Source: Elusimicrobiota bacterium
Lineage (GTDB): Bacteria > Elusimicrobiota > Elusimicrobia > UBA1565 > UBA9628
DNA: 36,479 bases
Assembly: GCA_027319565.1 (NCBI GenBank)
Contig: DAHVNA010000020.1
Location: 1 to 36,479, forward strand
Direction: 5' to 3'
Part shown: positions 6,001 through 28,078 of the stretch, one piece after another
How positions within the stretch are numbered: position 1 is the first letter of the stretch
How the letters are laid out: each line of letters begins with the position of its first letter
The notes under the pieces: generated by a model
Databases searched by the model: none
What the model was told of the DNA's origin: nothing
What the model saw: the letters and a program-made list of their open reading frames with translations, nothing else
Translations under genes and position numbers: made by a program

Positions 6001-9000
6001 CCTGGACCGGCTTCTCAGTTGGTCGTCGTTCCTCCGGGAGAAACTCTCTCCGGCGGCAAAACCACTCCTCCCGCGGGACTCACGGGAACGGTTTCGACCC
6101 AGACCGCGGGCGCGGCGTTCTCTGTCTCTATTTACGCGACCGATTCCCGCTACAACTGGGTAGACACTTATAATGCGACAGGTCTTTCCCTGACTTCTAA
6201 TGATCCCCTTGCGTCTAATTTGGGTTCATTTAATCTAACGAACGGTTCAGATGTGGTCAGCGGGATCACTCTCTACACTGCCGGAACGCGCTCAATTACC
6301 GCTTCGGGCGGAAGCCTCACGGCCAGTTCCTCGACCTTGACCGTAGCCCCCAATAGTCCGGTCAATCTTTTAGTCCTTTTGCCAACTGAAACCAGAACCC
6401 CGGGACTATCGGGTTCCACCGGACGCACGGGATCGCCCTTTACGGTTCAGGCGGGAAGTCCTTTTAACGCCGAGGTCGATATCACCGACGCTTTCTGGAA
6501 CCTAGAGCCTGGAACCAGTCAACAAGTCGAGCTTGAGGCCTCAAACCCATTTGGCACCGTCACTCCCTCTTCAGCCGTCATTGTCAGTTCCGGAATTTTC
6601 TCGGTGACCTTAAGAAGCGCGACCACCCAGACCTTGTACGCCCAGATGGTTCAATCGCCTCCGCCTTGGGGGCCGGCATTGGCCGTCGATACCAGCTCTA
6701 TCGTGAACGTCACTCCGGCCCCGGCAAAGAGTCTTTTAATTGTCTTGCCGGGAGAGAGTTTTGATCAGGGGTCTCCCACGGGAAAAAGCGGAACGCCTCA
6801 ACCGCAGACGGCGGGAACGGCTTTCAACGTCACGGTCGGGGTGGTTGATCAATACTTTAACCTGGTGCCGGGTTATTCCGACGTGGTTCAGGTCAACACT
6901 CCGCTTGACCCATATGCCCCGGCGGTTGCCACCGCGCCCATCAATACCGCCTTTGGCTACACTAATCCGCCGATGTCGGCGACCTTGCTCATGGCGACCA
7001 CCGGAGACTATTTGTCGGCCGATGATTTTAGCGCTTCGGGTTTAAGCCCCGATCCGCAATCTTCTACCTTTACTCTGACCGCGGCCCAGGCCATGGGAAT
7101 TCAACTGGTGATGCCGGGAGAGACCGCTTTGCCGGGATCCGGCAATTATCCCAATGGCGGTATGGCGGGAGCGATTTCGACGGCGACCGCGGGTTCCTCT
7201 CAAGCGGGCGTTCCATATGTGGCTACGGTCAATCTCGTGGATAAATATATGAACGTGGTTGGAAGCGCGGGGCAATGCCCTCCTGTCATCGTTCAAACCA
7301 ACGATCTCTATGCGGTTCAGGTGGGAACGATTCCCTTGGCCAATGGCGGGAGTTTGCCGGTGCCTCTTAATTTCGTGACGAAATCAACTCAAGCCCAGGT
7401 CCAGGTGGGAATTGGAGTTGACCCTGCGGTGTGTCCGACCAATGCGGTGTGTCCGGCCAATGCCGGGAGCGTTTGCTTGGCGGAATTTCCCGCGGCTGAG
7501 ACTCCTCTCTTTCAAGTTTTTGCATCGACTGCGGTCGCCATGAAGGTGATCTTGCCGGGTCAAAGCTTGACACAGGGAAAATGTAATGTGAAGCCAGGAA
7601 TTGAATGCGCGCCGATTACCGGCGAACCCGGAGTGACCGGCAGCCCCGATCCGTTCCTCATTCAGGTTCCCGCGACCTCGATGATCGCCGACGTCTATTT
7701 AGTCGACGCCTATAATAATATCACGACCAATATTCCCGCAGGAAATTCTCAGCAAGACACCAATCCCCCGGCGACCATGCCGACAGTTCAGCTTTCTTTC
7801 CCATCCGATCCCTTGGCTTCTCCTCCGCCGTCTGAAACATTATCTTTGGGCAACTGGCCGTTCTCGATATCGCCCTTTACGGCCTTGTCGACCTATACCG
7901 TGGTCGCTTCGACGACTTCGACTTCAGTGGTCAGTTTCTCATCCGCGACTTCCGATTCTTTTATCGTTTGGCCGGGTCCTGCGGATTACCTTGAGTTTTC
8001 TAATTATCCTTCGACCATTTCCGCCGGGACTCCCTTTGCTCCAGACTTGGCGGTCTATGACAAGTATCGCAATCTCGTTTCCACCGGTCCTAACGGGTAT
8101 TCCGATACCGTGGAATATGAGGGAGAGACGTTTACCAATTCCATTCAAAACACCAGTTTTGTCCCGTCGTTTGTGACCTTTGATTCCGCAACCGATATGG
8201 GAATTATCGTCGATACCCCCAGTGTCACCCTGTTTAAGGCGGGACTGCGTTATATCGAGGCCTATGATCAGGCCAACACCAATATCAACACCAATGTATC
8301 GGGATATTCAAGCAATCCTGAAATTTACGTCAACCCCGGCCCGCCGGCGGCGGTGGCGGTTTCTCCTTCGGGACCCGTATCAGTGTCCGCTGGATCCTTG
8401 GTCCCCAATGCTCCGGGATATCAGAATATTACCGGGCAGGTCGTTGACGCCTACGGCAACACCTTAACGGCGGCGGCGACGGTTTATATCGCAATTGCGA
8501 CGGATTCCGTGACTTCCTTGGGCGTGGGAACGACAGGGTATTTAGCCCTTAACTACGGTTCCGGCTGGGTGGATGTCGGCGCCTCAACCGTTGTTTATAC
8601 TGATTCCAACGGCCAGGTGGGCGTCTCAACTCCAACGATCGCTTATTTTGTCAGCTCCCATGCCGGAGATTGGGCTCGAATTTGGGTGGGAACCGGAACC
8701 GTTCCGTCTAATATCAATCCCTTTATCACTCAACAGATTGATATTTCGGGAATTATCACTACGGTTGGTGGAACTCCGTCCCAGATTGTCTTTATCTCAA
8801 GCCAAACCCAGGCCTTTGCCGGTATTACTTCGCCGACTGGCGCGGGAGCTCTCTACACCTTGGAGCGGTTGGATGACTTTGGAAACGTCAGCGATGAAGG
8901 GAACACGACTTTAATTATGCAAATTCCCACGGCCCAAGAGACCATTCATACCAATGCCGGGTTCGCCTTGGGAACCAGCGGAACCGGCGGCGATTACGGA

Positions 9001-12000
9001 TTCATGGTTTTGTCCGGCGGCCAGCTTTTCTTTACTACTCAATGTTTTATTCCCAACGGGAGTTCGAGTTGTCAGGTCCAATATCATGACAAGATGAGCT
9101 CTTATTCTGGCCTCAATCCTGCTTCTAATACTGGGGCTAATGGCCGACCGGGATACTGGACCATCCAGGTCCTTTTGAGCGGGAGCCTTGCGGCCCAAGC
9201 CCAACTTCAGATGAATCCGGATGCGACTTATCAGATGGGCTTTGGAAATAATTATCAAGAAGAAACCGCAGGAACGGTTCTCTATAATTCCCAAAGCGTT
9301 CCTTTCTATGCCGAACTTCAAGATATTTTTGGAAACCCGACGGTGGCGACCGAGACAGTGGAGGTTCAGCTTTCAACAGTCACGAGACAGCCTTCCCCAT
9401 TTGACGACTTCGCCGGTTTCTCAGTTTCCAGCGCGGCTTTCCCCGCCTCGCGCTTAGGCGTGTCTCCGGCGTTTGCGTCTCCGACTTCGACGTTGACGAT
9501 TTCTCTCAATGAATACGAGACGACCTTCTATTATATGGATACCGAAGCTTCAACGGCCTACGCTTCTTCCGCGCCCGTCATTGGGCTGACCGCTCTTAAT
9601 TTACCGGGGCTCTTGACGGGAACTCAACCGGTGGATATTGTGGCCAACGATATCGACCATATCGCGATTACAACCTCGACTGCGGTTCAAATTTCAAGCG
9701 GGTCCATCGCGACTCTCCAAGCCGGAACGACATCACAGGAATTTTTCCTGATTACGCAAGACGTCTTCGACAATCCGTCTCCACTTTTATCTGGACAGGA
9801 CTATCATGGAACGGGATCAGCTCATTTTGAGCTTTCATCGGATTCTCCGGGACAAGTCTTTTTCTCGACCGCCCAGCCGGGAAATTTCTCGGTTCAGCCC
9901 ACGACTGAAACCATGATCCTGACGGCCTATGCGACCGGGTTTTACGTGATCGACGACACGGTCACGGTTTCGGGGTATCATCATCTGTACGCTACCGATC
10001 TCAATGGCGATGGATTTTTGACCGTTCCCTCCAGTTACAGCGTTCTTCCGGGCCCGACGGCGGGGATTGTTTTTGAAAATCCGTCTCGCCGATTAATTGC
10101 GGGAACGACTATTGAGTATTATCCAAGCTACGCGGTCGGAGCCCCGACGAATACCGTCATTTCCGCGGCCTTGGTCGATCAATTTGGCAATATCACGACT
10201 TCAACCAATACCTACACGATTCTCTACAGCGCGGATAACTCGAACGCCTGGATGGGAACCGATCCGACGGCGGTCATTCTCGCGACTAGCCCGTCCGGCT
10301 CTTGGAACAACGTCGGTCCCGGAGTGACCTTTGCAGTTTCTATTCCCGGAGGCTCGGGTTTAAGCGCCGCTCCGATTTATTTCTGGGACACGGTCGCGGG
10401 CACGACGACGGTCACCGCCCAGGCCACCTTGGGCGGAAGCAATGTATTTCCTCTCAGTTCACAACAGGAAATCATCACCCCGGGAACGGCCTATTACATC
10501 ACTCTCCACCATCCCTATGATATTTCCAATCCTCTAAAGGTCAATGTGCCCGGTCCGATTTCTACCACTGAAACTCTCCCCAATGGGACGACCGTTCAGT
10601 GGGGCGTCAACGCCCGCGATCTATTTGGAAACGTCGCGACCGGAGATTCAATTAATGGACAGTATTTTTCGGGAGAGGTCGATTTCTTTACCTCGGATTC
10701 CACTCAGAACGTCAATCTAATCGATCTTCTGCATGGAACGACCTACCATGATTTCGTTCCGACAGACGCCGGGGTCTATAACGATATGCAGGTGACCGAC
10801 AAGGTGGTGGAAGCCTTGCATGTCTCCGCGACTGATTTTGCCGCTATTCCTCCCATTTGGGGAGAGACTGAAGACGGCTCCAGAACCGATCTTTATACCT
10901 CTAACCCCATTGAGCGTTCGACCGGCGACATCTATACCGCCGGAGTCGTGGTTTTGCCTACGGATCTGGCCCCACAAAATCCGCTTCCGACCGCCAAGCA
11001 GCAGGCCGGAGTGACGTTAACTACGCTTGCCCAGGGAGATGGAACTACTCCTCAAAGTCCAAGCCCGGTCCCGATGATTCGCCTCGGTCTTGCCATTGAT
11101 CCCGGTGGAGTTCCTAGTTTGACGGCGCAATTGTCCGAGATGAACGTGTTCGCCAACTCCGCCGGCAACCTCAACAACGATCATATCACTCAAGTTGGGT
11201 TTTACCAGGATACCGATAAAACCGGAGTTTTTGACCCGGTCAATGATTTATTGATTGCCAGCGGCACCTATGACACAACCGTCAATGGCTGGCATTTCGG
11301 AGATCCCGCTTTTAGCGAGATTCCCATGGATCAGTCTCAGCCCGCTGCGACCACTTTAACGGCGGCCGAACAATATTTCTTTGTCACCATTCGTATCGCC
11401 TCTTCCGGATATACCACCGGCGAGCTGCCGGCCTCTTTTGGAATGGATATCGTCGGCCCCTCGGATATTATTTTGACTTCGACGAGCACCGTGGGAATGG
11501 CCATTAACAATTTCCCGATTTATACGACGACTTCAACCGTTTTGCCGGGAGAGCCCGATATCTTCGTTGAGGGACAATCCATCAACGCCTATTGGCAACC
11601 CTCCGGCGCGCCGTCGCCATCGACATTTACATATGTCAATCAAGGCGTTCAAAATGTCGGAGTTCTCGCTCTTCAAATGTGGACCAATCTCTACACTGGG
11701 GTGATCAACACCCTTTTCGTCAACAACGCGGGGCTTGATTCCGATGTCAACGGAGTCAATCTTTATCTCTGCACGAACGCGAGCCTTCAGCCCATCAACC
11801 CTTGCCCCGGCTTTGCCCCGGCAATCGATCTTTTGGTGGCTTCCGCGACCTTTGTCAGCGGATCGGCGCAGCTAAACATCAGCGATCCTTCCGGGGTCGC
11901 CGGAACGATCGGGACCTCGACCAACACGTATTTCGTCGCTTATGATATCTCTCCAACGGCGGCTAATGGGGACGCCGAAGGGGCCAATATCACCAACGGT

Positions 12001-15000
12001 TCGGTGATTGCGCCTTCGGGAGCGGGGCTAGTTCAATCTTTCAGTCAAATTGTCTCGGCGACGGCAACGATTGTCGCGACCCCCAACGTCGTCAATTTGA
12101 CCGCGGTCAACGCCGCCGGCGGGCCCTCTGGAAACATCGAGCCCATTGCCGCCAGCGCGGTTCAAAATTCGACCAATGTCCCGGTGGTTAAATTCACTGT
12201 TCAGACCTATTCCGGCTCCGCCGCTTGGACCGGGCTTAAACTCGATCGCTGGCTTCCGTCGACGATGTTGAGCGGCAACGGCCAATATAACGCTTCAGAG
12301 GCGATGGTCAATAAAGCCTCCGATATCACTAATATCCGCATTTGGCTGGATGTTCCCAATAGCGGGCTCTTTAGCTCGACTTCCGACGTCATTGTCAGTC
12401 CCGTCTCCATCACCCATGTTTTTCCGACTACGACCTTGAGTCAAAGCTTGGGAGCGACCGATACGAGTCCTGAGACTATCGCGGTGGCGGACGCTTCCGC
12501 CATGTATTCCTTGGACAACCCCTTTGCCAATTCCCAGTCCAATGATCCAAATCCCGTCACCGGGCAAACCTTTGAGCGCTTGGTCATTAACGATGCCCAG
12601 ACTAATGAATTAGCAAAAGAAGTGGTTTATTGTTACGGAGTTAATTTCTCGACTTCCGTTTTTACCAATTGTTACCGCGCCCAGGAGGGAACCGCTGAAC
12701 TGGCTTTCTCTTCTGGAACGATCGTTTCGGGCCCCGCACGCCTTCCGATTCAAGGGACATTAGGGACTGGAAACCAGGCGCTCTCACCGGTGGCGCAAAA
12801 TTTCTTCGTGACCTATGATCTCAGCCCTTTCGCGACGGTTTCAAGCCAAGCCTATGTGGGCGCGATTATCCCCTCTGTCAGCACGGTGAGCTTTATCGAT
12901 CTCAACGATTCTGCCGGCGGAGAAATCTCGCTTAATGATCCATCAGTTAATCTTTCGACGGTTTCATTGCCCGGTTGTTTGGGGCCAGGAACTAACGGGA
13001 CCATTTATGAGCCGAGCCCATATGATTCTCTGATCTTGCCAAGCACCAATTACTTTCAGATTGCCGCGCCTAAAACGGTGTGTCCAACGGGATGGGGAAT
13101 TGCGCCTATCGGAGAAACTTCAATTGTTAGGCTTCAGCAAGTTCTCCATTATCCGGATTTGGTCGACGTCATCGCGACCGACACTATTGACGGAAATATC
13201 AGCGGGTCTCCGTCCTTGGCTTTCCAGGCTAACTCCGAGTCTTTTGCCCAGCAAAATTCGACCGTCGCGGTCGCGGAGATGAACCTCAACACCTTTATTT
13301 CCGATGGTCAATTGCGTTGGATGGTCGTTTTTGCGACCGGATCGGCCACTTCCGGCGGCGTCATTACCCCCGATGTGGACATGGTTTCGGTTTGGTATGA
13401 CAAAAACGGCGATGGGGTGTTGGATCAGGGAGACGTTCTGTTGGGGACGGGAACTTTTGGAAATTATGGCGGGCTTCCTCTTGAGGCCCAGGTCAATATG
13501 TTTACCCCAATTGGAATCGTTCCCAATGCCTACGCCTCGCAGGCGCAAAGGTATTTCATCGCCTATCATATAACGTCCAATGCTCTCCCGATTAATCCCA
13601 TCACATTCCAACCGAGAACTTTGGGCGCGATGATTTTGCCGTCCACGGGCACTATCGGCTCTTTCCCCGAGGGGCAGCCGACTCCGCCGGATAATCCCGT
13701 TGAGAACTCAATTGTTCTTCCGGATTCATATGACCCCGCCTCTCCCTTGCCTTTTGCCTCTCAATTGCGACAGATCGTGGCGTCTCCGCAGACTCTTTAT
13801 GTTCAGGCGACTCCATATTTCTCCGATCAATTTGGGAATTCCTATCCCGCGCCTATCTTAGAAGAGGCGATTCCTCAAGAGGCGGCGGGAACTGTGGATA
13901 CCAGCTGGGTGATTACTTCGACCGCCGGGCTTCCGACACCGACTCCGGGAACCACCAGCTATGTCTTAGTCGACCAAGAAATTGTCAGTTATCAAGGCCT
14001 GGGCATACTCCTTTCCGGTCCCACGACGGGACCGGCTCTATTGGGAGTGACGCGCGGCTTGGTCAACACCCTGCCGGTGGCGCATTCTCCCGGAGCGGTC
14101 ATCGCCCCGACTTTGCAACAAGGAGTGAGTAATGCCGTGGCGCTGAGACTTGACGTCTGGTCTTCTGGAACGCAGATGGAATGGAACGGCGTGACCTTGA
14201 ACCGAATCATTCCGACCGGGCTTAACGGACAAGATTCCGATCTTTTGGATGTCAAGATGTGGGACACTTGCGCCAGCGGCGTTTCCTGCGTGGTCGGAGC
14301 TCCTTTTGCTCCAAGCGCGGATTTAAATATCGGAGAGTCCAGCATGGGAGCTCCGGATAATCCAACCGCGGAATCGGCTTTAAGCCTTTCAAATCAGGGG
14401 CAGCCCTTTGCCATGATTACGCCCTCAACCATTACCTTCTATGTCACGCTGGACGTTTCTCCCTCGGCCAGATTTACCTATCCGACCTTGGCCCCTTATA
14501 ACGAAGTGACCGGGGTCTTTGCTTCGACTGTCGCTTTCACTACCTTGCCGGCTGGAAACAGCAATTCAGTCTGCGCTGCGATAAACGGGGCTTGCAGCAA
14601 TCAATCTCAGGTGGCCTCTCCCGCCTTTGTCTTGGTCCCAACCATCAATACGGTCTCAATTAATCTCGCCCAGCTTTCGGGCCAAACGGTGGTTCAAAAT
14701 ACCGTCAATTATCCAATGTTGCGCCTTCAAATGCAGACTAATCAGAATAGCGCGATTATCACGGGCCTGACCTTGCAGCACATCACCGCCAACGGCGCCT
14801 TGGATTCCGATATCACCGCCATCAAGGTTTGGAGATCGACTGATGGAGTGGGGGCTTTCGACGCGGCGGATTCAAGCGAAACCGCGAGCGGAACTTACCC
14901 CAATATGATTTCGTTCGGCAACGATCTCTTCAGCTCGGGCACGGCCAGCATTATACTGAAAGATCCGATTTTAGTCAGCACCACTCCCTGGTATTATTTC

Positions 15001-18000
15001 GTCACATATGATTTCTCGCAATTTGCTTCAATCGGCAGTTTTGACGGAATCGGGGTTTCTTCCGCCGGAGCGTTTGCGGTCCAGGTGCCCAACGTCGCGG
15101 TCTTAGTCGGAAGCCCGACCTTTGTCAGTAATCCCTTGACCGAGGTCAATAAGGTTCAATCCACCTTAACCTTGGGGGTTAATGACGTGGCGGCCAATAT
15201 CCCGCCGGTGACGCAGGCGGCTCAAAATGTGGAGTTCTTGGCCTTTAACCTGGTCACCAACGTGGGACTCTCTCCCTGGAGAAATATTATCTTAGAGCGC
15301 GGCGGAGCCTCTCAGAATCCAAACACTCCTTTAGGCGCCAACACCGACGTTAAATTTGTCCGGGTCTGGAAAGACCTCAATAATAACGGGATTTTGGATC
15401 CCGGAGATCTGGATATTTCGGACGCCAACACCGCCTTGGGAGCCGCTGTTTCATCGAATACCGGGGTTTTCTATTCAACAGCCGGGTATGTGGTTGGCTA
15501 TTCGACTTTCGACTTAGTTGTCATTTCCACTAATGGATTTCCCAGAAACAATGTGGGTAATATGGTGGGAGGACAAATCTACGTGGGCGGAGCGGAACTG
15601 ATGACCTTCTCAGGTCCTGGATGTCAATCTAACCCGACTCCCGGAATCGATACTCTGACTGGAGATCCGTGCCTCTCGATATCTTCAAGAGGAAACGCCT
15701 TGGGCGCCGGGCCAACGCCGATTCTCTCTTGGTCGAGCGGAACCGTGGCCGAGAAAGTCGATGTTTTTGATCAGCTCAATAATAAAGATGTCGACCACAC
15801 GGTTTATCTTAACAGCGATCAACTCATCGCTCCGACGGCGCAGATGTTCTTTGTCGCTTATGATGTCGGCGATGACGCGGTTCCCTCGAACTTAATTGGA
15901 GTTAATATTCGCGCTCCCTCTTGGTTTGGTCTTCCGGATGGAGATCAAATGAGTTCAAATCTTTATCTGAACATCACTAAAAATAACCCGCTGGGAACGG
16001 CTACGACGGGATACCCTTTCGTGGGTTCTATTGTCGCGATTAGCCCGATTGCTTTGTCGGTTTCAGGCTTTACGATCGCGCCTGCCGGAGCGGCTCCGGG
16101 ACAGCAAAATGTTCCCTTGCTAGAGCTTCAGCTCAATACCAATAGCGATTTTACCAATATCTCGACGATGAGAATCACCCAGATTGGGGGCCCCACCAGC
16201 CCTGTGCCCAATGGCGATTTTTCCAGCATGAGCGTCTGGCTTGATAACGGCAGCGGAGTTTTCTTGCCGCAATATGAGTCGGAACTGGGCTCTTTCAATA
16301 TGGTTAGCGGATCTTCGATTGCGCTCGTCAATTTCAACTATCAAGGGATTCCGTATCTGAGCGTCAGCACAAACACAACGACCCTTTATGTCGCCGCGAA
16401 CATCTCCACTGGCGCGGTGATTGGAGACGCTTCCGGGGCGTTGTTGGCTAAATTTAGCGATATGCTTTCCGAAAACGGGAGTCCTCTGCCGGTGGAATCT
16501 AATCCTTCAGAGGCGCCTCCAATTCAGTCGGCTCTGACTACGATCGCGCCCTTGACCGTTCCATCGGTGTGCCTGAGCACTTCCGCCCCGCCAGTCATTG
16601 TTGTCCGCGCCCAGGCGGGCGTTCCAGGAATCGCGGTGGGACAACCCGCTTTTGCCCAAATCAATGCCAGCGGCTGCAACAACGGGCAAGACCCCACCAA
16701 TCCTAGAAACAATATTTGCCGCGATCAAAATGGGGATCCGATTCCCAATCAATCGTTGTGGATTTGCGCCAACGGGACCCCTTGGAAAACCAATTGTCCC
16801 AATAGCTACCCGCTTATTGACATTAACGGCGACGGGGTTCCGGATAATTTTGCCTGGGGCGCGAGTACGATCCCTGATCAAGTGTCTCTGACCTGCGACG
16901 GAATTCCCACCACCGATCTGACCGGAACGGGGGTTTTGGATTTTGACCTCAACAAAGACGGGATTGTGGACATGGTTTTCCCGAACGGATTTGGAGGCAT
17001 TCAAATCCTGTTGGGAAATAATATCGCCGAGCAGGGAAATAGCGCGGCGGCGGTCCCGGTTCCCGACCAAGGTTTTGTGCCTTCAGCCTGGACCGGGCGC
17101 ACCAATCAACTTCCCGTGGCGCTCCCCAATATTTCTATTCCTGGAAGTTATCAAGTCGCGGTCGGGCCCTATTACAGTAATCCAACGGGCTATAGCGTCG
17201 TTTGGTCCTCTCTTACGGTCACCAGCGTTTCGACGACTGTCGTGAGTGGAACTCTTACTTCCGGAATTGTTCAGAACCTGACCTTGTCTTCCCCTCATAT
17301 CACGCATTTAACCAGCGCGATGACCCCTAATACCACCAGCTTTACCGTTGATGACGCTTCTTCCCTTCAACTGCCCGGGCTTCTCTATGTCGGCAGCGAG
17401 ATTTTAAGAGGAGAAAATGCGGGCAGCAATCGGATTAACGTCATCAGCCAAGCCGGAGACCCCGCCCCCGGAACCGGGCGCGGTCTTGAAGGCAGTTCTC
17501 CCATTCTTCATCTATCCGGAGAGCCGGTTTCTGACGGCGCCGCGATTCTCTTTGCCCGATATGTGACTTCCGCGGGAGTCATATCTCAGCCTCGGGCGGT
17601 TCAGGTCTTTAGACCCGATCCCTCTATTCCTGCGCCACCGACCAACGTGCAGGTTTCGGAGACCAGTCAGACTAGCTATCCGATTAACTGGACTCCTTCC
17701 ACCGATCCTGATTCCGGAGTCTTGGGATATGAAATTCAAGAGCGCGGCGGGGCTCCCACTGATTTGGCGGCCAATGTCGTTTGGAGAACGATTAATTTCA
17801 TCTCGGCTCGCGTTCCCACCTATTTTGTCGGCGATCCCGAGTATCCGGGTGAAACCCCGCGCCCCACGGGAGATTTCTTTACCTACCAGATTCGCTCCTT
17901 CTCCGGCTCGGGAGTGTTTTCGCCTTTCTCGGCTTTATCGACCAGCGTTCAAACCAGCGCGATTACGACTCCCATTGCCGGGGTGAGCAATTATCCCAAT

Positions 18001-18282
18001 CCTTTTAATACTGACAAAGGAGAACAGACCTGTATTTCCTATATCCTAGGCGCGGACTCCGATGTCACCATCACTCTCTATGACTTGTTGGGTTATGTCG
18101 TCAGGACTCTCAGTTATTCTTCCGGCCAGCAAGGCGCGGTGGCCGGCCAAAACTGCGCGATGTGGGATGGGAAGGCTTCCTCGGGGCGTTATGTCGCTAT
18201 GGGAGGCTATATTGCCCGCATTCAAGTGAAAGGACCTCTAGGCTCTTCGACTCAGATTCGAAAAATCGGAGTGATTCATTAA
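1..18282 (+). CDS. Giant secreted/surface protein, 5'-truncated (>6,090 aa in window): Ig-like repeat arrays, Ca-binding DxDxDG-type loops, FN3 domain, C-terminal FlgD-Ig/T9SS-CTD-like domain
   Basis: Frame 1 is open from base 1 (TPVYSSTSSFTVGS...), so the GTG at 34 is probably not the start. About 10 repeats with D-x-x-x-P hinges (e.g. DNTPP) and '(I/L)xGTAxD...DxAGN'; about 17 'D-x-(F/Y)-x-N' Big/invasin-like repeats; 8 'VW.D...YFVxYDIS' domains; FN3 (PAPPTNV...INWTPSTD...GYEI); C-terminus SNYPNPFN...VTITLYDLLGYVVRTL...WDGK...GGYIARI. Stop TAA at 18280-18282. Confidence 0.93.
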   Translation, partial: TPVYSSTSSFTVGSPDLWQWDNAISPTNYLVNSVQYLVRAFGEDSANNQTIENIGSFTFDNEAPIAGIIVPSSGAFYNSLPTISGTATDNVGIATVTISIEDLTTGVCYSTGSGSFGGACPDYFPVAGNCQNAVGNPASCSWSYSNIPWSNEHQYLVLSKAEDLASNVQNTFALGVSSNAFVFDTTLPLVGLSTPPASIPEPPGSFRMSSVSPISGTASVPAPDHLALVQVCVQQLTGGLGDFWNPAVGAFDQTSCDWMAATTANSWVNWSTMTDIPWISGDQYAIIARSEDEAGNFSVPYSTYNIVFDNTPPITAVVLPASGTYVNASGIAQIYGTMQDQTQTGADTGTVTTVDIEINNITNDTCWNGTSFQAPPCPVLGGGAIVPVYQSSWSLNAAYVPPVVDLISGDSYYLTTSGTDNAYPAGNVEAYSSSINSQVVVDTIPPNGVVTSPTNGAVVASLATITGTAQDVGPNPSGVSNASQISVSIGQVSPGNGCWNGTITGGTFTLSGCPIFYPITNSGLGGTYSAGFWSVNAPPLTTKYTYRVWVQVTDNAGNVEPLSEVSSMTFTYDTTAPGIAITAPVGLPAVGGNLNAITTLAGTASDEFGISYASVAFQEADTLMYYSGVTSTFSSTTPVWFNAPVTGTAPNFSWISSTWPAIAPTTGRKYNIYAEAANLSGVVTTPVSITIEWDTTPPLSAPTFPANISYVNNISSITGTAQDPGTSPSGVAGVQTQIESVSQNSCWTGSAFTGTCGLTGAWLSGAVLGVPVGGVYPWTDTTSLPPSNNSGGFANGSQYLVTSRAFDLATNTQTVTTQNSFYFDASSPTAVVQFPLQDKYYNSVPSITGTAQDNLPGDFNVLFPRVRIYDISLAEAWDSLDNKFDLPETSTSAWNVASSSSSTGAPFNWAFNTSGINWQPRDWATGSGYRIDVWVLDDAGNYTVTSTTFGFTNVPPSSLVTFPSPNGVWFDSMSVIDGTALDNYAPITNVSLEMWYSTNGVTNYWETVLPHWTTTPGFVPLNVTGAEGSAIAWNYTGVDFNDPTSNNFSWHGGAGNLPPDGMTFNLITQAVDAAGNVQTIYSTATFNFDNVPPTSGLQNPPPNSAQNSIGELIGTAADDASGVKSDVISIYQYETANYFNGTAFNSSSQMWITPNVYPSSWTYLNGSLSFVNGDHYIFYSSATDVATNVQTAVSASEVLFDTVPPTSNVISPSNGATDAQDEIISGAASDPGFTSGISGTGSGVYPGTTPTWQKGAIQIAVFLDTAPYAETSGPVAYPGWDSTGYWWNGSTWVAAGSVSSPPVWVNATYGSDGLGDWTYTGLVCPSPNPTNIPCWQDGQQYYTWSRSIDNAGNVENVINNGPLFFIAAPAVGFNVTISSNPSVAGSNGSEISMTVEAIDANGNRASGYQGNVSFYIDGVPGGPEVMGDNGNYAHDLAYGLPSAYTFTSGVGGDNGIHTFTDVLIRKAGNRQLRVEQSNNSSIFGVLPITVQPASPYQVQVIADYPSGQTPAPGTANGVSGSPSSFTDGTPVPFLVQVTDQFWNLTVSSSVSVNLLSSDPNDYCENSSAPLVFTGSTTVNHIFVTAGNQTLAASGAGIYPNSDNPSTTVPIVGQPASRLLAVLPGEALNQGKVCAQPFGKTGTPSPMEAGLKFGATVYGVDAYYNVDTSGNFQVAASLTNDPYAIEPSSQNLVNGTTEFFFTPVVAVSSEGIIAQASSLPAGTSFYITPNEPRAWWNTPVKLQLIAQGQVAAPGLAPYTANPTTGGRSVSTPTTLTAGVTTYLTVNVVDAYYNVVGGATPFMPSLPVSSYNIVAQMNFLGDPNIQGRGFEPNPYQLSLVNGTTQFSVIPVTENLTPGTSIQIVDTGLTGTNYFADTVSSIPVQANSAIALQVLVPSQQPDQGTALGKTGNAGPLTAGVSYNVVVRAVDEFNNLANSGRQVALLANDPYATIPSPQPLASGQTTFSGFIPSIATGNLTVEAYDDSGNTPALSSQTDSGITVNPGPASQLVVVPPGETLSGGKTTPPAGLTGTVSTQTAGAAFSVSIYATDSRYNWVDTYNATGLSLTSNDPLASNLGSFNLTNGSDVVSGITLYTAGTRSITASGGSLTASSSTLTVAPNSPVNLLVLLPTETRTPGLSGSTGRTGSPFTVQAGSPFNAEVDITDAFWNLEPGTSQQVELEASNPFGTVTPSSAVIVSSGIFSVTLRSATTQTLYAQMVQSPPPWGPALAVDTSSIVNVTPAPAKSLLIVLPGESFDQGSPTGKSGTPQPQTAGTAFNVTVGVVDQYFNLVPGYSDVVQVNTPLDPYAPAVATAPINTAFGYTNPPMSATLLMATTGDYLSADDFSASGLSPDPQSSTFTLTAAQAMGIQLVMPGETALPGSGNYPNGGMAGAISTATAGSSQAGVPYVATVNLVDKYMNVVGSAGQCPPVIVQTNDLYAVQVGTIPLANGGSLPVPLNFVTKSTQAQVQVGIGVDPAVCPTNAVCPANAGSVCLAEFPAAETPLFQVFASTAVAMKVILPGQSLTQGKCNVKPGIECAPITGEPGVTGSPDPFLIQVPATSMIADVYLVDAYNNITTNIPAGNSQQDTNPPATMPTVQLSFPSDPLASPPPSETLSLGNWPFSISPFTALSTYTVVASTTSTSVVSFSSATSDSFIVWPGPADYLEFSNYPSTISAGTPFAPDLAVYDKYRNLVSTGPNGYSDTVEYEGETFTNSIQNTSFVPSFVTFDSATDMGIIVDTPSVTLFKAGLRYIEAYDQANTNINTNVSGYSSNPEIYVNPGPPAAVAVSPSGPVSVSAGSLVPNAPGYQNITGQVVDAYGNTLTAAATVYIAIATDSVTSLGVGTTGYLALNYGSGWVDVGASTVVYTDSNGQVGVSTPTIAYFVSSHAGDWARIWVGTGTVPSNINPFITQQIDISGIITTVGGTPSQIVFISSQTQAFAGITSPTGAGALYTLERLDDFGNVSDEGNTTLIMQIPTAQETIHTNAGFALGTSGTGGDYGFMVLSGGQLFFTTQCFIPNGSSSCQVQYHDKMSSYSGLNPASNTGANGRPGYWTIQVLLSGSLAAQAQLQMNPDATYQMGFGNNYQEETAGTVLYNSQSVPFYAELQDIFGNPTVATETVEVQLSTVTRQPSPFDDFAGFSVSSAAFPASRLGVSPAFASPTSTLTISLNEYETTFYYMDTEASTAYASSAPVIGLTALNLPGLLTGTQPVDIVANDIDHIAITTSTAVQISSGSIATLQAGTTSQEFFLITQDVFDNPSPLLSGQDYHGTGSAHFELSSDSPGQVFFSTAQPGNFSVQPTTETMILTAYATGFYVIDDTVTVSGYHHLYATDLNGDGFLTVPSSYSVLPGPTAGIVFENPSRRLIAGTTIEYYPSYAVGAPTNTVISAALVDQFGNITTSTNTYTILYSADNSNAWMGTDPTAVILATSPSGSWNNVGPGVTFAVSIPGGSGLSAAPIYFWDTVAGTTTVTAQATLGGSNVFPLSSQQEIITPGTAYYITLHHPYDISNPLKVNVPGPISTTETLPNGTTVQWGVNARDLFGNVATGDSINGQYFSGEVDFFTSDSTQNVNLIDLLHGTTYHDFVPTDAGVYNDMQVTDKVVEALHVSATDFAAIPPIWGETEDGSRTDLYTSNPIERSTGDIYTAGVVVLPTDLAPQNPLPTAKQQAGVTLTTLAQGDGTTPQSPSPVPMIRLGLAIDPGGVPSLTAQLSEMNVFANSAGNLNNDHITQVGFYQDTDKTGVFDPVNDLLIASGTYDTTVNGWHFGDPAFSEIPMDQSQPAATTLTAAEQYFFVTIRIASSGYTTGELPASFGMDIVGPSDIILTSTSTVGMAINNFPIYTTTSTVLPGEPDIFVEGQSINAYWQPSGAPSPSTFTYVNQGVQNVGVLALQMWTNLYTGVINTLFVNNAGLDSDVNGVNLYLCTNASLQPINPCPGFAPAIDLLVASATFVSGSAQLNISDPSGVAGTIGTSTNTYFVAYDISPTAANGDAEGANITNGSVIAPSGAGLVQSFSQIVSATATIVATPNVVNLTAVNAAGGPSGNIEPIAASAVQNSTNVPVVKFTVQTYSGSAAWTGLKLDRWLPSTMLSGNGQYNASEAMVNKASDITNIRIWLDVPNSGLFSSTSDVIVSPVSITHVFPTTTLSQSLGATDTSPETIAVADASAMYSLDNPFANSQSNDPNPVTGQTFERLVINDAQTNELAKEVVYCYGVNFSTSVFTNCYRAQEGTAELAFSSGTIVSGPARLPIQGTLGTGNQALSPVAQNFFVTYDLSPFATVSSQAYVGAIIPSVSTVSFIDLNDSAGGEISLNDPSVNLSTVSLPGCLGPGTNGTIYEPSPYDSLILPSTNYFQIAAPKTVCPTGWGIAPIGETSIVRLQQVLHYPDLVDVIATDTIDGNISGSPSLAFQANSESFAQQNSTVAVAEMNLNTFISDGQLRWMVVFATGSATSGGVITPDVDMVSVWYDKNGDGVLDQGDVLLGTGTFGNYGGLPLEAQVNMFTPIGIVPNAYASQAQRYFIAYHITSNALPINPITFQPRTLGAMILPSTGTIGSFPEGQPTPPDNPVENSIVLPDSYDPASPLPFASQLRQIVASPQTLYVQATPYFSDQFGNSYPAPILEEAIPQEAAGTVDTSWVITSTAGLPTPTPGTTSYVLVDQEIVSYQGLGILLSGPTTGPALLGVTRGLVNTLPVAHSPGAVIAPTLQQGVSNAVALRLDVWSSGTQMEWNGVTLNRIIPTGLNGQDSDLLDVKMWDTCASGVSCVVGAPFAPSADLNIGESSMGAPDNPTAESALSLSNQGQPFAMITPSTITFYVTLDVSPSARFTYPTLAPYNEVTGVFASTVAFTTLPAGNSNSVCAAINGACSNQSQVASPAFVLVPTINTVSINLAQLSGQTVVQNTVNYPMLRLQMQTNQNSAIITGLTLQHITANGALDSDITAIKVWRSTDGVGAFDAADSSETASGTYPNMISFGNDLFSSGTASIILKDPILVSTTPWYYFVTYDFSQFASIGSFDGIGVSSAGAFAVQVPNVAVLVGSPTFVSNPLTEVNKVQSTLTLGVNDVAANIPPVTQAAQNVEFLAFNLVTNVGLSPWRNIILERGGASQNPNTPLGANTDVKFVRVWKDLNNNGILDPGDLDISDANTALGAAVSSNTGVFYSTAGYVVGYSTFDLVVISTNGFPRNNVGNMVGGQIYVGGAELMTFSGPGCQSNPTPGIDTLTGDPCLSISSRGNALGAGPTPILSWSSGTVAEKVDVFDQLNNKDVDHTVYLNSDQLIAPTAQMFFVAYDVGDDAVPSNLIGVNIRAPSWFGLPDGDQMSSNLYLNITKNNPLGTATTGYPFVGSIVAISPIALSVSGFTIAPAGAAPGQQNVPLLELQLNTNSDFTNISTMRITQIGGPTSPVPNGDFSSMSVWLDNGSGVFLPQYESELGSFNMVSGSSIALVNFNYQGIPYLSVSTNTTTLYVAANISTGAVIGDASGALLAKFSDMLSENGSPLPVESNPSEAPPIQSALTTIAPLTVPSVCLSTSAPPVIVVRAQAGVPGIAVGQPAFAQINASGCNNGQDPTNPRNNICRDQNGDPIPNQSLWICANGTPWKTNCPNSYPLIDINGDGVPDNFAWGASTIPDQVSLTCDGIPTTDLTGTGVLDFDLNKDGIVDMVFPNGFGGIQILLGNNIAEQGNSAAAVPVPDQGFVPSAWTGRTNQLPVALPNISIPGSYQVAVGPYYSNPTGYSVVWSSLTVTSVSTTVVSGTLTSGIVQNLTLSSPHITHLTSAMTPNTTSFTVDDASSLQLPGLLYVGSEILRGENAGSNRINVISQAGDPAPGTGRGLEGSSPILHLSGEPVSDGAAILFARYVTSAGVISQPRAVQVFRPDPSIPAPPTNVQVSETSQTSYPINWTPSTDPDSGVLGYEIQERGGAPTDLAANVVWRTINFISARVPTYFVGDPEYPGETPRPTGDFFTYQIRSFSGSGVFSPFSALSTSVQTSAITTPIAGVSNYPNPFNTDKGEQTCISYILGADSDVTITLYDLLGYVVRTLSYSSGQQGAVAGQNCAMWDGKASSGRYVAMGGYIARIQVKGPLGSSTQIRKIGVIH

Positions 18283-25589: not shown

Positions 25590-25820
25590 GAGAAGAGTCT
25601 AGCAAAAGAGATTTAAAAATTTCAATTTTTAGCCCGCTCTATGGAGACGCAACCGATGCGAACTATTCTAGAACCTCTTTAAGCTAATGTCCACGCCACC
25701 CAACAACTCAGGCCTTCCCTTTTTCAAAGTGTTGCACTAGTATATTGAACTTGGGGCCGACGCCAAGGCAGCAAGGAAGCATTCCAATAATACACGGGAG
25801 AGATTGCTAAAATACTGAAG

Positions 25821-27308
25821 ATGAAAAAAAGTTTTGACCCGAGGAAAATGATGGAACTGGCTGTCAATGTCATGCGCCAGTCCGTCTCGGAGCCGCGAAA
25901 AGACGACAAGGCGAGTCCGCTTGTCGGCGCAGCGCTCTTCAAACCCGACGGCGCCATCGAGACGGCCTGCCGGGGCGAACTCCGCCACGGAGACCACGCG
26001 GAGTTCACGCTCCTAGAAAGAAAAAATCGCGGGAATAAACTGGACGGCTCCGTCTTATTCGCCACGCTCGAACCCTGCGCCCCGGATTCGCACCATCCTC
26101 CGAAAATGAGCTGCACCGAACGCATTGTGTTGTCGCGAATCAAGGAGGTCTGGGTGGGAATTGAGGATCCCGATCCCAAGGTAGACCGCAAGGGGATCAA
26201 ATTCCTTCAAGATGCTGGCGTCAGGGTGCACATGTTCGACCGCGACCTTCAGGAAGTCATCCGGAAGGCAAACAAAAATTTTCTTAAGCAAGCGCTTCAG
26301 CGAGCCAAGGCGGTGCGGGGCGCAAAGCAATTAAAAGGAACCGCGCTTTCTTCGCTTGAAAACGCTTTGGTTGTTTCCACCATTAAGGATTTTTCAGGAG
26401 AGGCCCTTAAACGATACCGTTCTCAGGCCAAAATCACGACAAGAATCGGCTCACAAGCTTTCAATCGCCATCTGCTGCGGCAGGGGCTGTTAAAAGAGGA
26501 AAAGGGTCGACTGATCCCGACTGGATTCGGCTTTCTTCTCTTCGGGAAAAAACCCCGCGCAATTCTTCATCAGGCCGGTCTCCTGGCCACCATTCATTAT
26601 CCCAATGGCAAAGATGAACTCTTGGATTTTGACGAACCGTTGATCCTGATCCCCGATCTAGTCGAAAAATGGCTCGGCGATAAACTGCCCAACGTCATTG
26701 ACCGAAGCCATATGCAGCGCCAAACTCAGCCAGCTCTCCCCTCTGAGATGGTGCGCGAAGCCGTGATCAATGCCCTCATTCATCGCGATTACGATATCAA
26801 AGGAGCAAAATGCCAACTCGTGGTCACGGAGAACTCCATCACGATCAAGAGCCCCGGCGCTCCGCCGCCACCTATCACAATAGAACAACTGAAATCATTC
26901 AACGCTCCCATGCTGAGTCGGAATCCAGGGTTGCATTACGTCTTCTCTCACATGGGACTGGCTGAAGAACGCGGCCTAGGAGTCAAGACCTTGAAGTCCG
27001 ACGCGGAAGAGGAGGGGTTGCCCTTGCCCAGGTACAGCTTTGAAGCCCCCTATCTTGCGCTCACTCTTTATCGAAATTCGGAAGCGCCTTCGCGAGCGCT
27101 GAACCAGGAAGTGCTGGATTCGATAAACAAGGCTGAGCGGAAAGGATGGCAGTGGCTGACCACGAAGGGCAAAGCCAAATCCAGCCAGTATGCGGTCGCC
27201 ATGGACATCGATAATCGTACCGCACGACGACATCTTAATGGGTTCGTTGAACTCGGCATGGCCAAAAAAACCGGATCAGGACCAGCCACTGAGTATGAGG
27301 TGCTTTAA
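25821..27308 (+). CDS. Fusion protein: RibD-like Zn-dependent deaminase + HATPase_c_4 (RecG_C-type) ATP-binding domain + winged HTH
   Basis: Deaminase: PLVGAAL, HAE, TLEPC-x11-C, DPDPKV...G. ATPase: REAVINALIHRDY, SPG, SRNP, EERGLG. wHTH: RTARRHLNGFVELG..KKTGSGPATEY. No RibD reductase domain. Confidence 0.85.
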   Translation: MKKSFDPRKMMELAVNVMRQSVSEPRKDDKASPLVGAALFKPDGAIETACRGELRHGDHAEFTLLERKNRGNKLDGSVLFATLEPCAPDSHHPPKMSCTERIVLSRIKEVWVGIEDPDPKVDRKGIKFLQDAGVRVHMFDRDLQEVIRKANKNFLKQALQRAKAVRGAKQLKGTALSSLENALVVSTIKDFSGEALKRYRSQAKITTRIGSQAFNRHLLRQGLLKEEKGRLIPTGFGFLLFGKKPRAILHQAGLLATIHYPNGKDELLDFDEPLILIPDLVEKWLGDKLPNVIDRSHMQRQTQPALPSEMVREAVINALIHRDYDIKGAKCQLVVTENSITIKSPGAPPPPITIEQLKSFNAPMLSRNPGLHYVFSHMGLAEERGLGVKTLKSDAEEEGLPLPRYSFEAPYLALTLYRNSEAPSRALNQEVLDSINKAERKGWQWLTTKGKAKSSQYAVAMDIDNRTARRHLNGFVELGMAKKTGSGPATEYEVL

Positions 27309-27324
27309 GTGAATCTACCGCAAC

Positions 27325-27433
27325 CGGACAAGAAAGCGGACATTTTGTCCGGATTCAGACAAGCGCCTATCCGAGCCAAATCGAGGATCCCGCCATTTTG
27401 GCGGGATAACATCCGGACATTTTTCCCGGATTC
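27325..27433. repeat. Palindrome/direct-repeat cluster downstream of the deaminase fusion
   Basis: CGGACATTTTGTCCGGATTC (27337-27356) and CGGACATTTTTCCCGGATTC (27414-27433) match at 18/20; hairpin ATCCCGCCA-TTT-TGGCGGGAT (27387-27407) between them; extra CGGACA at 27325-27330. Confidence 0.75.
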
Positions 27434-27663
27434 GCTTAAGCCGACGCTTGATCAAAGACCCGCGAGGCGTTCGCTGCGTTATTGCCGGACTAACCGAAGA
27501 GAAAAACGAGCTGGAAGTCGTGTGCCGAATTCTTGCCTCTGGAAAACTTCAGGTAATAACGGTATACTTGAGAAAGATAATATGACCGCTAAACAAATCA
27601 TTAATCGAGCTGATAAGCCGATGGCCGCGGTAGTGGCGCGCCCATTGAGCAAGACGCTTTTCT

Positions 27664-27684
27664 GCACTACGCTGGCACTACGCT
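27664..27684. repeat. Tandem 10-bp direct repeat GCACTACGCT x2 (integrase arm-site-like)
   Basis: Exact copies at 27664-27673 and 27675-27684, 64 bp upstream of the tRNA and followed by an AT-rich tract. The arm-site role is inference. Confidence 0.55.
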
Positions 27685-27748
27685 TGAATTTCAGTCAATT
27701 AGACATAAGTATAGATTAGTATTGTTTTATAAGTAGTTTTTTGATTCT

Positions 27749-27841
<93 letters not shown>

Positions 27842-27896
27842 GCTTTTGGGCGGAATTAGCAGAAGAGGATTCGAAGCTGACAGAAAAAACCTCCCT

Positions 27897-27968
27897 TGTC
27901 ATTCCGGCGTAAGCCGGAATCCAGAACTTTTAATAAAAACCTGGACCCCGATTTTCATCGGGGTGACG
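27897..27968. repeat. Inverted dimer of CGTC-type REP-like palindromes
   Basis: TGTC-ATTCCGGC-GTAA-GCCGGAAT-CCAG (27897-27924) and, on the minus strand, CGTC-ACCCCGAT-GAAA-ATCGGGGT-CCAG (27968-27941), separated by an AT-rich spacer. Confidence 0.75.
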
Positions 27969-28065
27969 TTGGGGTGCCCCAGAGCGAAAGCGAAGCTGGG
28001 GGAGACGGAATCCGACCGAGCATAGGCGAGGAAGTGCCGCTTCCAGGTTCCGTTTAAGAAAGCGG

Positions 28066-28078
28066 CCCTCCCTCTCCG
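28066..28078 (+). repeat. 13-bp direct repeat of the tRNA-Ser 3' end
   Basis: CCCTCCCTCTCCG is identical to 27826-27838, 240 bp upstream. Confidence 0.65.

Follow-up and report, generated by a model that had tools for sequence, protein, structure and literature searches.

Nucleotide deamination is an established output of anti-phage defence, as in the dCTP deaminases and in AvcD, the latter combining a P-loop kinase with a dCMP-deaminase and being controlled by an RNA. RADAR contains RdrB, an amidohydrolase-fold deaminase, together with a separate AAA+ protein. Back-up effectors of the PrrC/RloC type reside in type I restriction-modification (RM) loci and are NTPase-gated, pairing an ABC-ATPase with a HEPN anticodon nuclease. 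KomA of the Kongming system is reported as an anti-phage nucleotide deaminase in the accessible part of its preprint (bioRxiv 10.1101/2024.12.20.629578).

The closest described proteins are the Schlatpases, in which a Schlafen head is carried on a GHKL-type ATPase scaffold (PF13749). In the accessible text describing them, 60,692 SLFN-GHKL proteins were counted, most having no further domains or a short HTH, with exchange with type I RM being noted (bioRxiv 10.64898/2026.05.29.728809). The same text reports that in RzAgo PF13749 binds ATP via E314 and N318 and drives the formation of tetramers that assemble the effector, with the hydrolysis mutant E314A showing severely reduced phage protection (bioRxiv 10.64898/2026.05.29.728809). 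A Schlafen-minimal histidine kinase-wHTH protein is among the back-up effectors of BREX/BR systems according to the accessible part of PMC12839542. Neither of these two texts, as far as they are accessible, mentions a deaminase fusion.

The window, meaning the whole stretch of 36,479 nt analysed here (Elusimicrobiota bacterium, GCA_027319565.1, contig DAHVNA010000020.1, positions 1 to 36,479), contains at 25821..27308 (+) a real open reading frame of 495 aa. With a probability of about 0.7 its product is an ATP-switched back-up anti-phage effector deaminating a nucleotide or an RNA base, that is, a single-gene, horizontally mobile conflict effector in which a RibD-derived zinc deaminase replaces the Schlafen tRNase on a Schlatpase scaffold. 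The features of the locus are as follows.

25630..27725, no strand: 2.1-kb insertion that separates the cyclophilin gene from tRNA-Ser, missing in the congeners G001 and G005
25821..26315, + strand: RibD-fold zinc deaminase domain, aa 1-165 (Pfam, structure comparison, alignments)
26316..26369, + strand: flexible linker, aa ~166-183, with pLDDT below 50 at 168-183 (AF2 model)
26370..27074, + strand: Schlatpase-type scaffold, a helical/beta subdomain and the PF13749 GHKL ATPase, aa ~184-418
27075..27308, + strand: C-terminal winged helix, aa ~419-495, more variable than any other part of the protein
27512..27748, + strand: right end of the integrative element
27749..27841, + strand: tRNA-Ser(GCT), its 5′ half being the integration target

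The fusion of deaminase, ATPase and wHTH proposed in the preliminary description is borne out both by Pfam, with dCMP_cyt_deam_1 (PF00383) at aa 11-113 (E 2e-9) and HATPase_c_4 (PF13749) at aa 328-415 (E 6e-15), and by VIA-align comparison of an AF2 model (62-sequence alignment, pLDDT 81, pTM 0.56). In the model aa 6-161 align with B. subtilis RibG (Z 20.0, rmsd 2.1, 143 aligned), aa 182-451 with the uncharacterised DIP2311 (3lmm; Z 20.4, rmsd 4.9, 222 aligned) and aa ~420-495 with winged helices (Z up to 10.3). The deaminase motif set is intact as claimed (H59/E61/C86/C98), and the RibG-like fold is indeed present without a reductase domain, none being detected by Pfam in the 495-aa protein. 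There was likewise no SLFN_AlbA_2 (PF04326) match by Pfam, with structure comparison also identifying the N-terminus as deaminase. An alternative start at M10/M11 is preceded by a closer ribosome-binding-like site, and the resulting 485-aa form is that found in database entries.

The PF13749 GHKL domain carries the ExxxN ATP/Mg ligands, with E313 and N317 being invariant (58/58) and corresponding to RzAgo E314 and N318. It is followed by a C-terminal HTH as in stand-alone Schlatpases, and identity to the two Schlatpases compared is 24-27% over the scaffold. The scaffold is that of the published Schlatpases minus the Schlafen head. As the head is a zinc deaminase rather than a Schlafen domain, the output cannot be tRNA cleavage, and the window protein resembles a Schlatpase-type back-up effector yet is not a member of that group, the Schlafen domain being missing.

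The family is widespread, database labels being ‘ATP-dependent DNA helicase RecG’ or RibD. Among the best 120 homologues listed, 119 carry PF00383 and PF13749, with at least 63% identity, and the ESM Atlas holds five sets of clusters with this architecture (53-457 members) under automatic names only. A profile of the deaminase domain identified 543 representatives (50% clustering) at E up to 1e-30. Examination of 143 new representatives showed 60 or more residues after the deaminase in 110, with 85 of the 110 matching the scaffold and 25 not, the latter being mostly fusions to long Pfam-blank regions (30 scanned, 13 read). The deaminase is therefore a mobile domain, recurring in unrelated architectures as effector domains do. 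A weak search of longer fusions (868-2475 aa) with aa 1-165 scored none of 216 candidates. The shorter matches, of which at least 120 were listed, were read as truncations or frameshifts, and in 29 of those listed with unaligned ends no evident new domain was seen by eye. Three proteins (P0304, P0285, P0266) have an extra N-terminal domain of 135-185 aa before the deaminase, Pfam-blank and in one case Cys-rich. On a viral contig (L106 4282-5316) a deaminase of the same RibD-like clade lies behind an unrelated N-terminal region without the GHKL scaffold.

The spread of the family is sporadic, although its sequence is conserved. The 79 loci collected from GTDB genomes fall in 27 named phyla, three of the loci being archaeal, with conservation across phyla of 49-77%. 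A quick tree of 72 rows (71 of the 79 loci and the window) mixes phyla, the nearest named neighbours of the window copy being Elusimicrobiota. Full-length copies occur in 3/60 relatives and 0/5 congeners, and matches were found in 2/300 other genomes of the phylum. The vertical, conserved distribution that the preliminary description had named as counting against a defence role is thus not seen, the spread being sporadic and mobile. No match was found in a plasmid collection at E 1e-30, and a phage collection gave two weak matches to the scaffold only.

The family also appears to be undescribed, as had been proposed. In PADLOC-DB 2.0.0 (2023) it matches only the scaffold shared with pAgo and with Argonaute-associated SIR2 proteins, a SIR2 head preceding the same scaffold in the latter models, and in PHROGs the two halves of the protein are matched separately. 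The PADLOC dCTPase model does not match the window protein at E up to 1, and matches one of eight scaffold-bearing representatives over 39 residues only. A full-text literature search, covering few subscription journals and main texts rather than supplements, found no description of a deaminase-PF13749 fusion and no publication combining ‘HATPase_c_4’ and ‘deaminase’. The word ‘deaminase’ is absent from the main texts of DefensePredictor (PMC13092281), Bacterial Schlafen (PMC13056530) and PMC13552941, the supplements of which may list the architecture.

A link of the homologues to defence genes, which the preliminary description asked to be checked, is evident from their neighbourhoods. A co-oriented type I or III RM gene lies within 5 kb in 40 of the 79 loci and within 1.5 kb in 34, with RM genes on both sides in 23, each locus's own genes being excluded as queries and RM identities being assigned by Pfam. 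At loci with 1.5 kb on both flanks an RM gene was found in 26/55 against 0/30 RibD controls, a contrast favoured by drawing the queries from the test loci and by the narrow control (RibD of one phylum, 1.5-kb flanks). In all, 1057 frames were called in the 79 loci and 249 neighbours (148 + 101) were Pfam-scanned; these were a selection among the 344 cluster representatives lying no more than 4 kb away, with opposite-strand frames of later loci omitted. The recurring neighbours are HsdS (23 loci), HsdM (18), HsdR (16 and 7), RadC (10), type III Res (6) and Mod (4). Layouts include hsdM-hsdS-gene-hsdR, hsdR-hsdM/S-gene-radC and res-gene-mod, with one copy lying between two DUF1156 genes. The RM matches at L004, L056 and L018 are remnants. 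The RM-linked loci span 17 named phyla, type I and type III layouts being scattered over the tree, and the 19 changes of context on the tree indicate an autonomous cargo rather than a fixed subunit. Other loci adjoin SIR2-HerA, Upx, Hachiman, CBASS, GmrSD, AbiEii or DUF1156/DUF499 genes. No RM gene lies within 5 kb in 39/79 loci, some of these being on short contigs and several among housekeeping genes; they include SIR2-HerA-type (L010), Upx (L076) and integrase-, transposase- and housekeeping-flanked cases. Since RM operons gather varied cargo (RadC, RhuM, ORF6N, Fic), residence there is no proof of defence. No conserved partner or antitoxin gene was found across the family neighbourhoods.

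At L037 (8570-11479) an HsdS (Methylase_S) region and the deaminase-GHKL protein share one open frame of 970 aa, possibly a fusion comparable to that of Schlatpase and HsdS in the accessible text of bioRxiv 10.64898/2026.05.29.728809. In G024 a second family member, of 638 aa, lies in a large defence island (L103, G024:C54 72000-91900) along with several further PF13749 genes, genes for a helicase and an HNH nuclease, and a ThiF/ubiquitin-like cluster.

The frequency of RM operons raises the question of whether the protein assists restriction directly, with the deaminase altering modified phage nucleotides such as 2-aminoadenine or 7-deazaguanine and so making phage DNA cleavable again. Nucleotides of either kind keep a 2-amino group. 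A substrate missing from uninfected cells would also explain both the high conservation and the harmlessness of the stand-alone gene, RM operons contain or adjoin half of the loci, sometimes with GmrSD, and RibD chemistry removes a guanine-derived amino group according to the accessible text of PMC8256712. Such a helper role is nevertheless unlikely: many copies, the window copy included, have no nearby RM partner, the conserved ribose-binding Asp leans to ribo-substrates, and the retention of the ATP switch and winged helix would be left unexplained.

The frequent position within operons, together with the C-terminal winged helix, would also suit a regulator or sensor of RM or defence operons, the winged helix binding an operator and the deaminase fold merely binding a nucleotide ligand. 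This is a somewhat less probable role in that the catalytic Glu and the Zn ligands are near-invariant across the family (H59 139/140, E61 139/141, C86 142/143, C98 140/142), the gene is usually mid-operon or last, and the types of operon vary. Moreover, conservation is lowest in the winged helix, with 44/75 codons non-synonymous against 26/165 in the deaminase (ungapped, compared with the G024 copy), and DNA similarity to that copy ends where the winged helix starts. Variability of this kind might be expected of a sensor.

At the window locus, the gene had been described as standing alone beside tRNA-Ser. While tRNA-Ser(GCT) does adjoin, the gene proves to lie within 2.1 kb of DNA inserted at a tRNA integration site. 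In congeners G005 and G001 the site is empty, the cyclophilin gene running straight into tRNA-Ser, and the 5′ part of tRNA-Ser is duplicated in G002 and G003. At the same site G003 has an insert of ~16 kb with an integrase, hsdM/S/R, a Schlafen-PF13749 gene and PIN, AAA and Panacea genes, and G002 one of 1.9 kb with an AAA_14-DUF4143 gene. Window positions 27512-27838 (327 bp) share 92% identity with the sequence that comes after the integrase of the G003 island. Neither an integrase nor a left-hand tRNA duplicate was found in the 2.1-kb insertion; together with the right-end match this makes it a reduced remnant of an integrative island, with the gene being the sole recognised surviving cargo at a defence hotspot. 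Run X3, possibly part of the source study, yielded a contig that matches 25600-27777 apart from 11 letters and 2 gaps and covers both insertion junctions, which therefore exist outside this assembly. Empty-site joints from related organisms occur in three metagenome runs.

GC content does not flag the gene as foreign (0.536 against 0.47-0.54). A promoter scan gave 4 sites against 1.7 +/- 1.3 in shuffles, none being 5′ of the gene on the same strand, and no RNA dataset carrying the gene was listed among sequencing runs. Elsewhere in the window, 27830-28070 is a dispersed intergenic repeat 3′ of tRNA-Ser (38 further matches in the genome and many in congeners), and 34-18282 (+) is a single 6082-aa ORF neither half of which matches Pfam at E 1e-5. 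The window genome (G000, 92% complete) has no type I RM match. It has two other PF13749-scaffold genes (G000:C31 16942-20000 and G000:C28 6018-7436), one of them adjoining the only RM-type (Mod-like) match found in the genome. Deleted remnants of the gene cassette, in which the upstream region and the opening ~27 codons run into the downstream flank, lie at other sites: at L102 7422-7758 (G001:C14), at G000:C89 8-62 and in a joint of 25886 to 27387. At G000:C89 8-62 a second copy begins where a contig of the window genome ends. G035 also has a deleted remnant.

Selfish or neutral mobile cargo, either an addiction-type toxin or a nucleotide house-cleaning enzyme serving mobile elements, with no anti-phage role and with the window copy perhaps a decaying relic, would account for the integrases, transposases and tRNAs adjoining several loci, the loss of integrase and left junction at the window element, and the deleted remnants in G001, G035 and at the contig end of the window genome. 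It is less probable again, as a conserved antitoxin partner was not found and the window copy deviates at only 6/229 conserved columns (family range 0-13), one deviation being R91H. Compared with the G024 relative, synonymous codon differences exceed non-synonymous ones in three of four parts, and the window copy looks intact from its sequence.

The relationship of the deaminase to RibD is close in fold and distant in detail. RibG/RibD is the closest solved deaminase at Z 20.0, TadA and dCMP deaminase reaching 14.9 and 14.8, and the domain has the CDA-fold HxE/PCxnC zinc site (Zn ligands H59, C86 and C98, catalytic E61) and the ribose-binding Asp (D116). NCBIfam RibD (TIGR00326) scores the window protein at 62.8 bits against a cut-off of 156.35, over profile positions 16-167 of 343 only. 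A separate, full-length RibD (332 bits) is encoded on contig C59 of the genome and is followed by frames which we take from their sequence to be ribE, ribBA, ribH and nusB, so that it lies in a rib operon. None of the 79 family loci adjoins rib genes, so the rib-operon residence that would have spoken for a riboflavin role is not seen; nor do the frames around 30 RibD control loci match any part of the window or of the sequence flanking the 79 loci, in agreement with the earlier statement that the window has no rib genes. When 45 family and 29 RibD domains are aligned together, the pocket Asn seen in every RibD (29/29) varies among family members and the equally constant RibD pocket His (29/29) gives way to Arg51 (45/45), a mapping by sequence alignment for which one pairwise alignment placed E53 at that position instead, with the ribose-loop Asp being common to all 74. 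R51, E53, K95 and F139 are specific to the family, which is split from RibD by a branch with 100% local support (unrooted FastTree). The claim of altered substrate loops holds in that the RibD signature PCxHxG(R/K)TPPC is absent from the family; the loop His is private to the window copy, position 91 being Arg in 138/143 members and in the three closest relatives checked. The signature and the roles of the pocket Asn and His are given in the accessible part of PMC3668577, residue roles also in that of PMC8256712, and the accessible text of Iyer 2011 (PMC3239186) treats the RibD-like clade as riboflavin enzymes only. For all its likeness in fold and the retention of D116, a divergent riboflavin-pathway deaminase is highly improbable given the separate RibD, the rib-free loci, the replaced residues and the supported branch, and the window protein is not RibD.

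The reading as an ATP-switched effector was already put forward as an effector swap in the preliminary description, and is supported by the RM-operon association, the tRNA island and the sporadic spread. By analogy with RzAgo, the protein would be held inactive until an infection cue, candidates being a phage protein, altered ATP levels and DNA recognised through the winged helix. The cue would lead to ATP binding and hydrolysis, oligomer formation and the switching on of the deaminase heads, a model taken from one preprint on a protein with a different sensor (Argonaute). Once active, the heads would convert an RNA base or a phosphorylated ribonucleotide; the pool would thereby be poisoned or drained and the infection aborted, the protein serving as a back-up to RM. 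Mononucleotide CDA-fold deaminases are mostly oligomers (accessible text of PMC8256712), making assembly of deaminase heads by an ATP switch plausible. Points against a defence role are the cross-phylum conservation, which is less typical of an arms-race protein, the window genome without a type I RM match, the R91H change in the window copy and the 39/79 loci without RM.

Depletion of dNTPs had been suggested on the analogy of dCTP deaminase. The invariant RibG ribose-binding Asp points away from this and leans to a ribonucleotide or RNA substrate, and the kept Asp116/Asx118 with basic Arg91/Lys95 suggests ribose-phosphate. In TadA the equivalent Asp reads a 2′-OH. Arg is a common guanine reader, and the amino group removed by RibD is that of the guanine 2-position. 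The RibD substrate derives from GTP. In the pathway given in the accessible text of PMC8256712, RibD removes a guanine-derived amino group. Taken with the Arg and the ribose-phosphate binders, this leads us to guess a guanine nucleotide or RNA G (to xanthine) first, at somewhat less than an even chance, with a cytosine nucleotide a good deal less likely, an adenine nucleotide or RNA A slightly less so again and some other substrate the least likely. The full proposal of a RibD-evolved, ATP-switched guanine deaminase that on infection converts GTP/GMP to XTP/XMP, or RNA G to X, and would form a new class of anti-phage effector, is tentative and on balance improbable; in its favour the ribose and phosphate binders are kept, with an invariant Arg probably placed in the base pocket. 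Were it true, PF13749 GHKL-wHTH would be a general plug-in immune switch (Schlafen, SIR2 and deaminase heads) and the RibD-like clade of 543 representatives a mobile deaminase used in many architectures. Guanine as substrate would be a chemistry not found among anti-phage systems in a limited literature search, and possibly a new editing enzyme. The gene is a tangible candidate for a defence system consisting of one gene, and as the same switch drives a different enzyme here, a clean test of stand-alone Schlatpase-type triggering.

Among the known deaminase systems, the family shares with the dCTP deaminases, AvcD, RADAR and Kongming the predicted use of nucleotide deamination as a defence output, and with RADAR and AvcD the gating of the deaminase by an NTPase-type partner, which is likewise predicted for the family. 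It does not have the kinase-deaminase architecture of AvcD, and differs from RADAR and Kongming in having a CDA fold and no conserved partner genes, KomA belonging to PF00962. KomA and P. aeruginosa DeaR were both considered as relatives and rejected on their TIM-barrel/PF00962 fold. With RibD/RibG the family shares the fold, the HAE and PC..C zinc site, the DP[ND]P ribose loop and basic residues in the CxxC insert, and it differs in having no reductase, in lying outside rib operons in a separate clade, and in its base pocket, where the Asn is variable, the His has become an invariant Arg and E53, K95 and F139 are extra. Like PrrC/RloC it is a putative effector gated by an NTPase and placed in the accessory slot that separates hsdS from hsdR, with GHKL and deaminase in place of their domains and without being bound to one RM type. 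The nearest likeness is to the Schlatpases and RzAgo, with which it shares the GHKL scaffold and its ATP/Mg-binding Glu and Asn, and with the Schlatpases also the C-terminal winged helix, sporadic horizontal spread and residence in RM and DUF499-type operons. It differs from them in having neither Schlafen nor Argonaute, the head being a zinc deaminase, which would make it an undescribed effector domain, of predicted function, on a known kind of defence protein.
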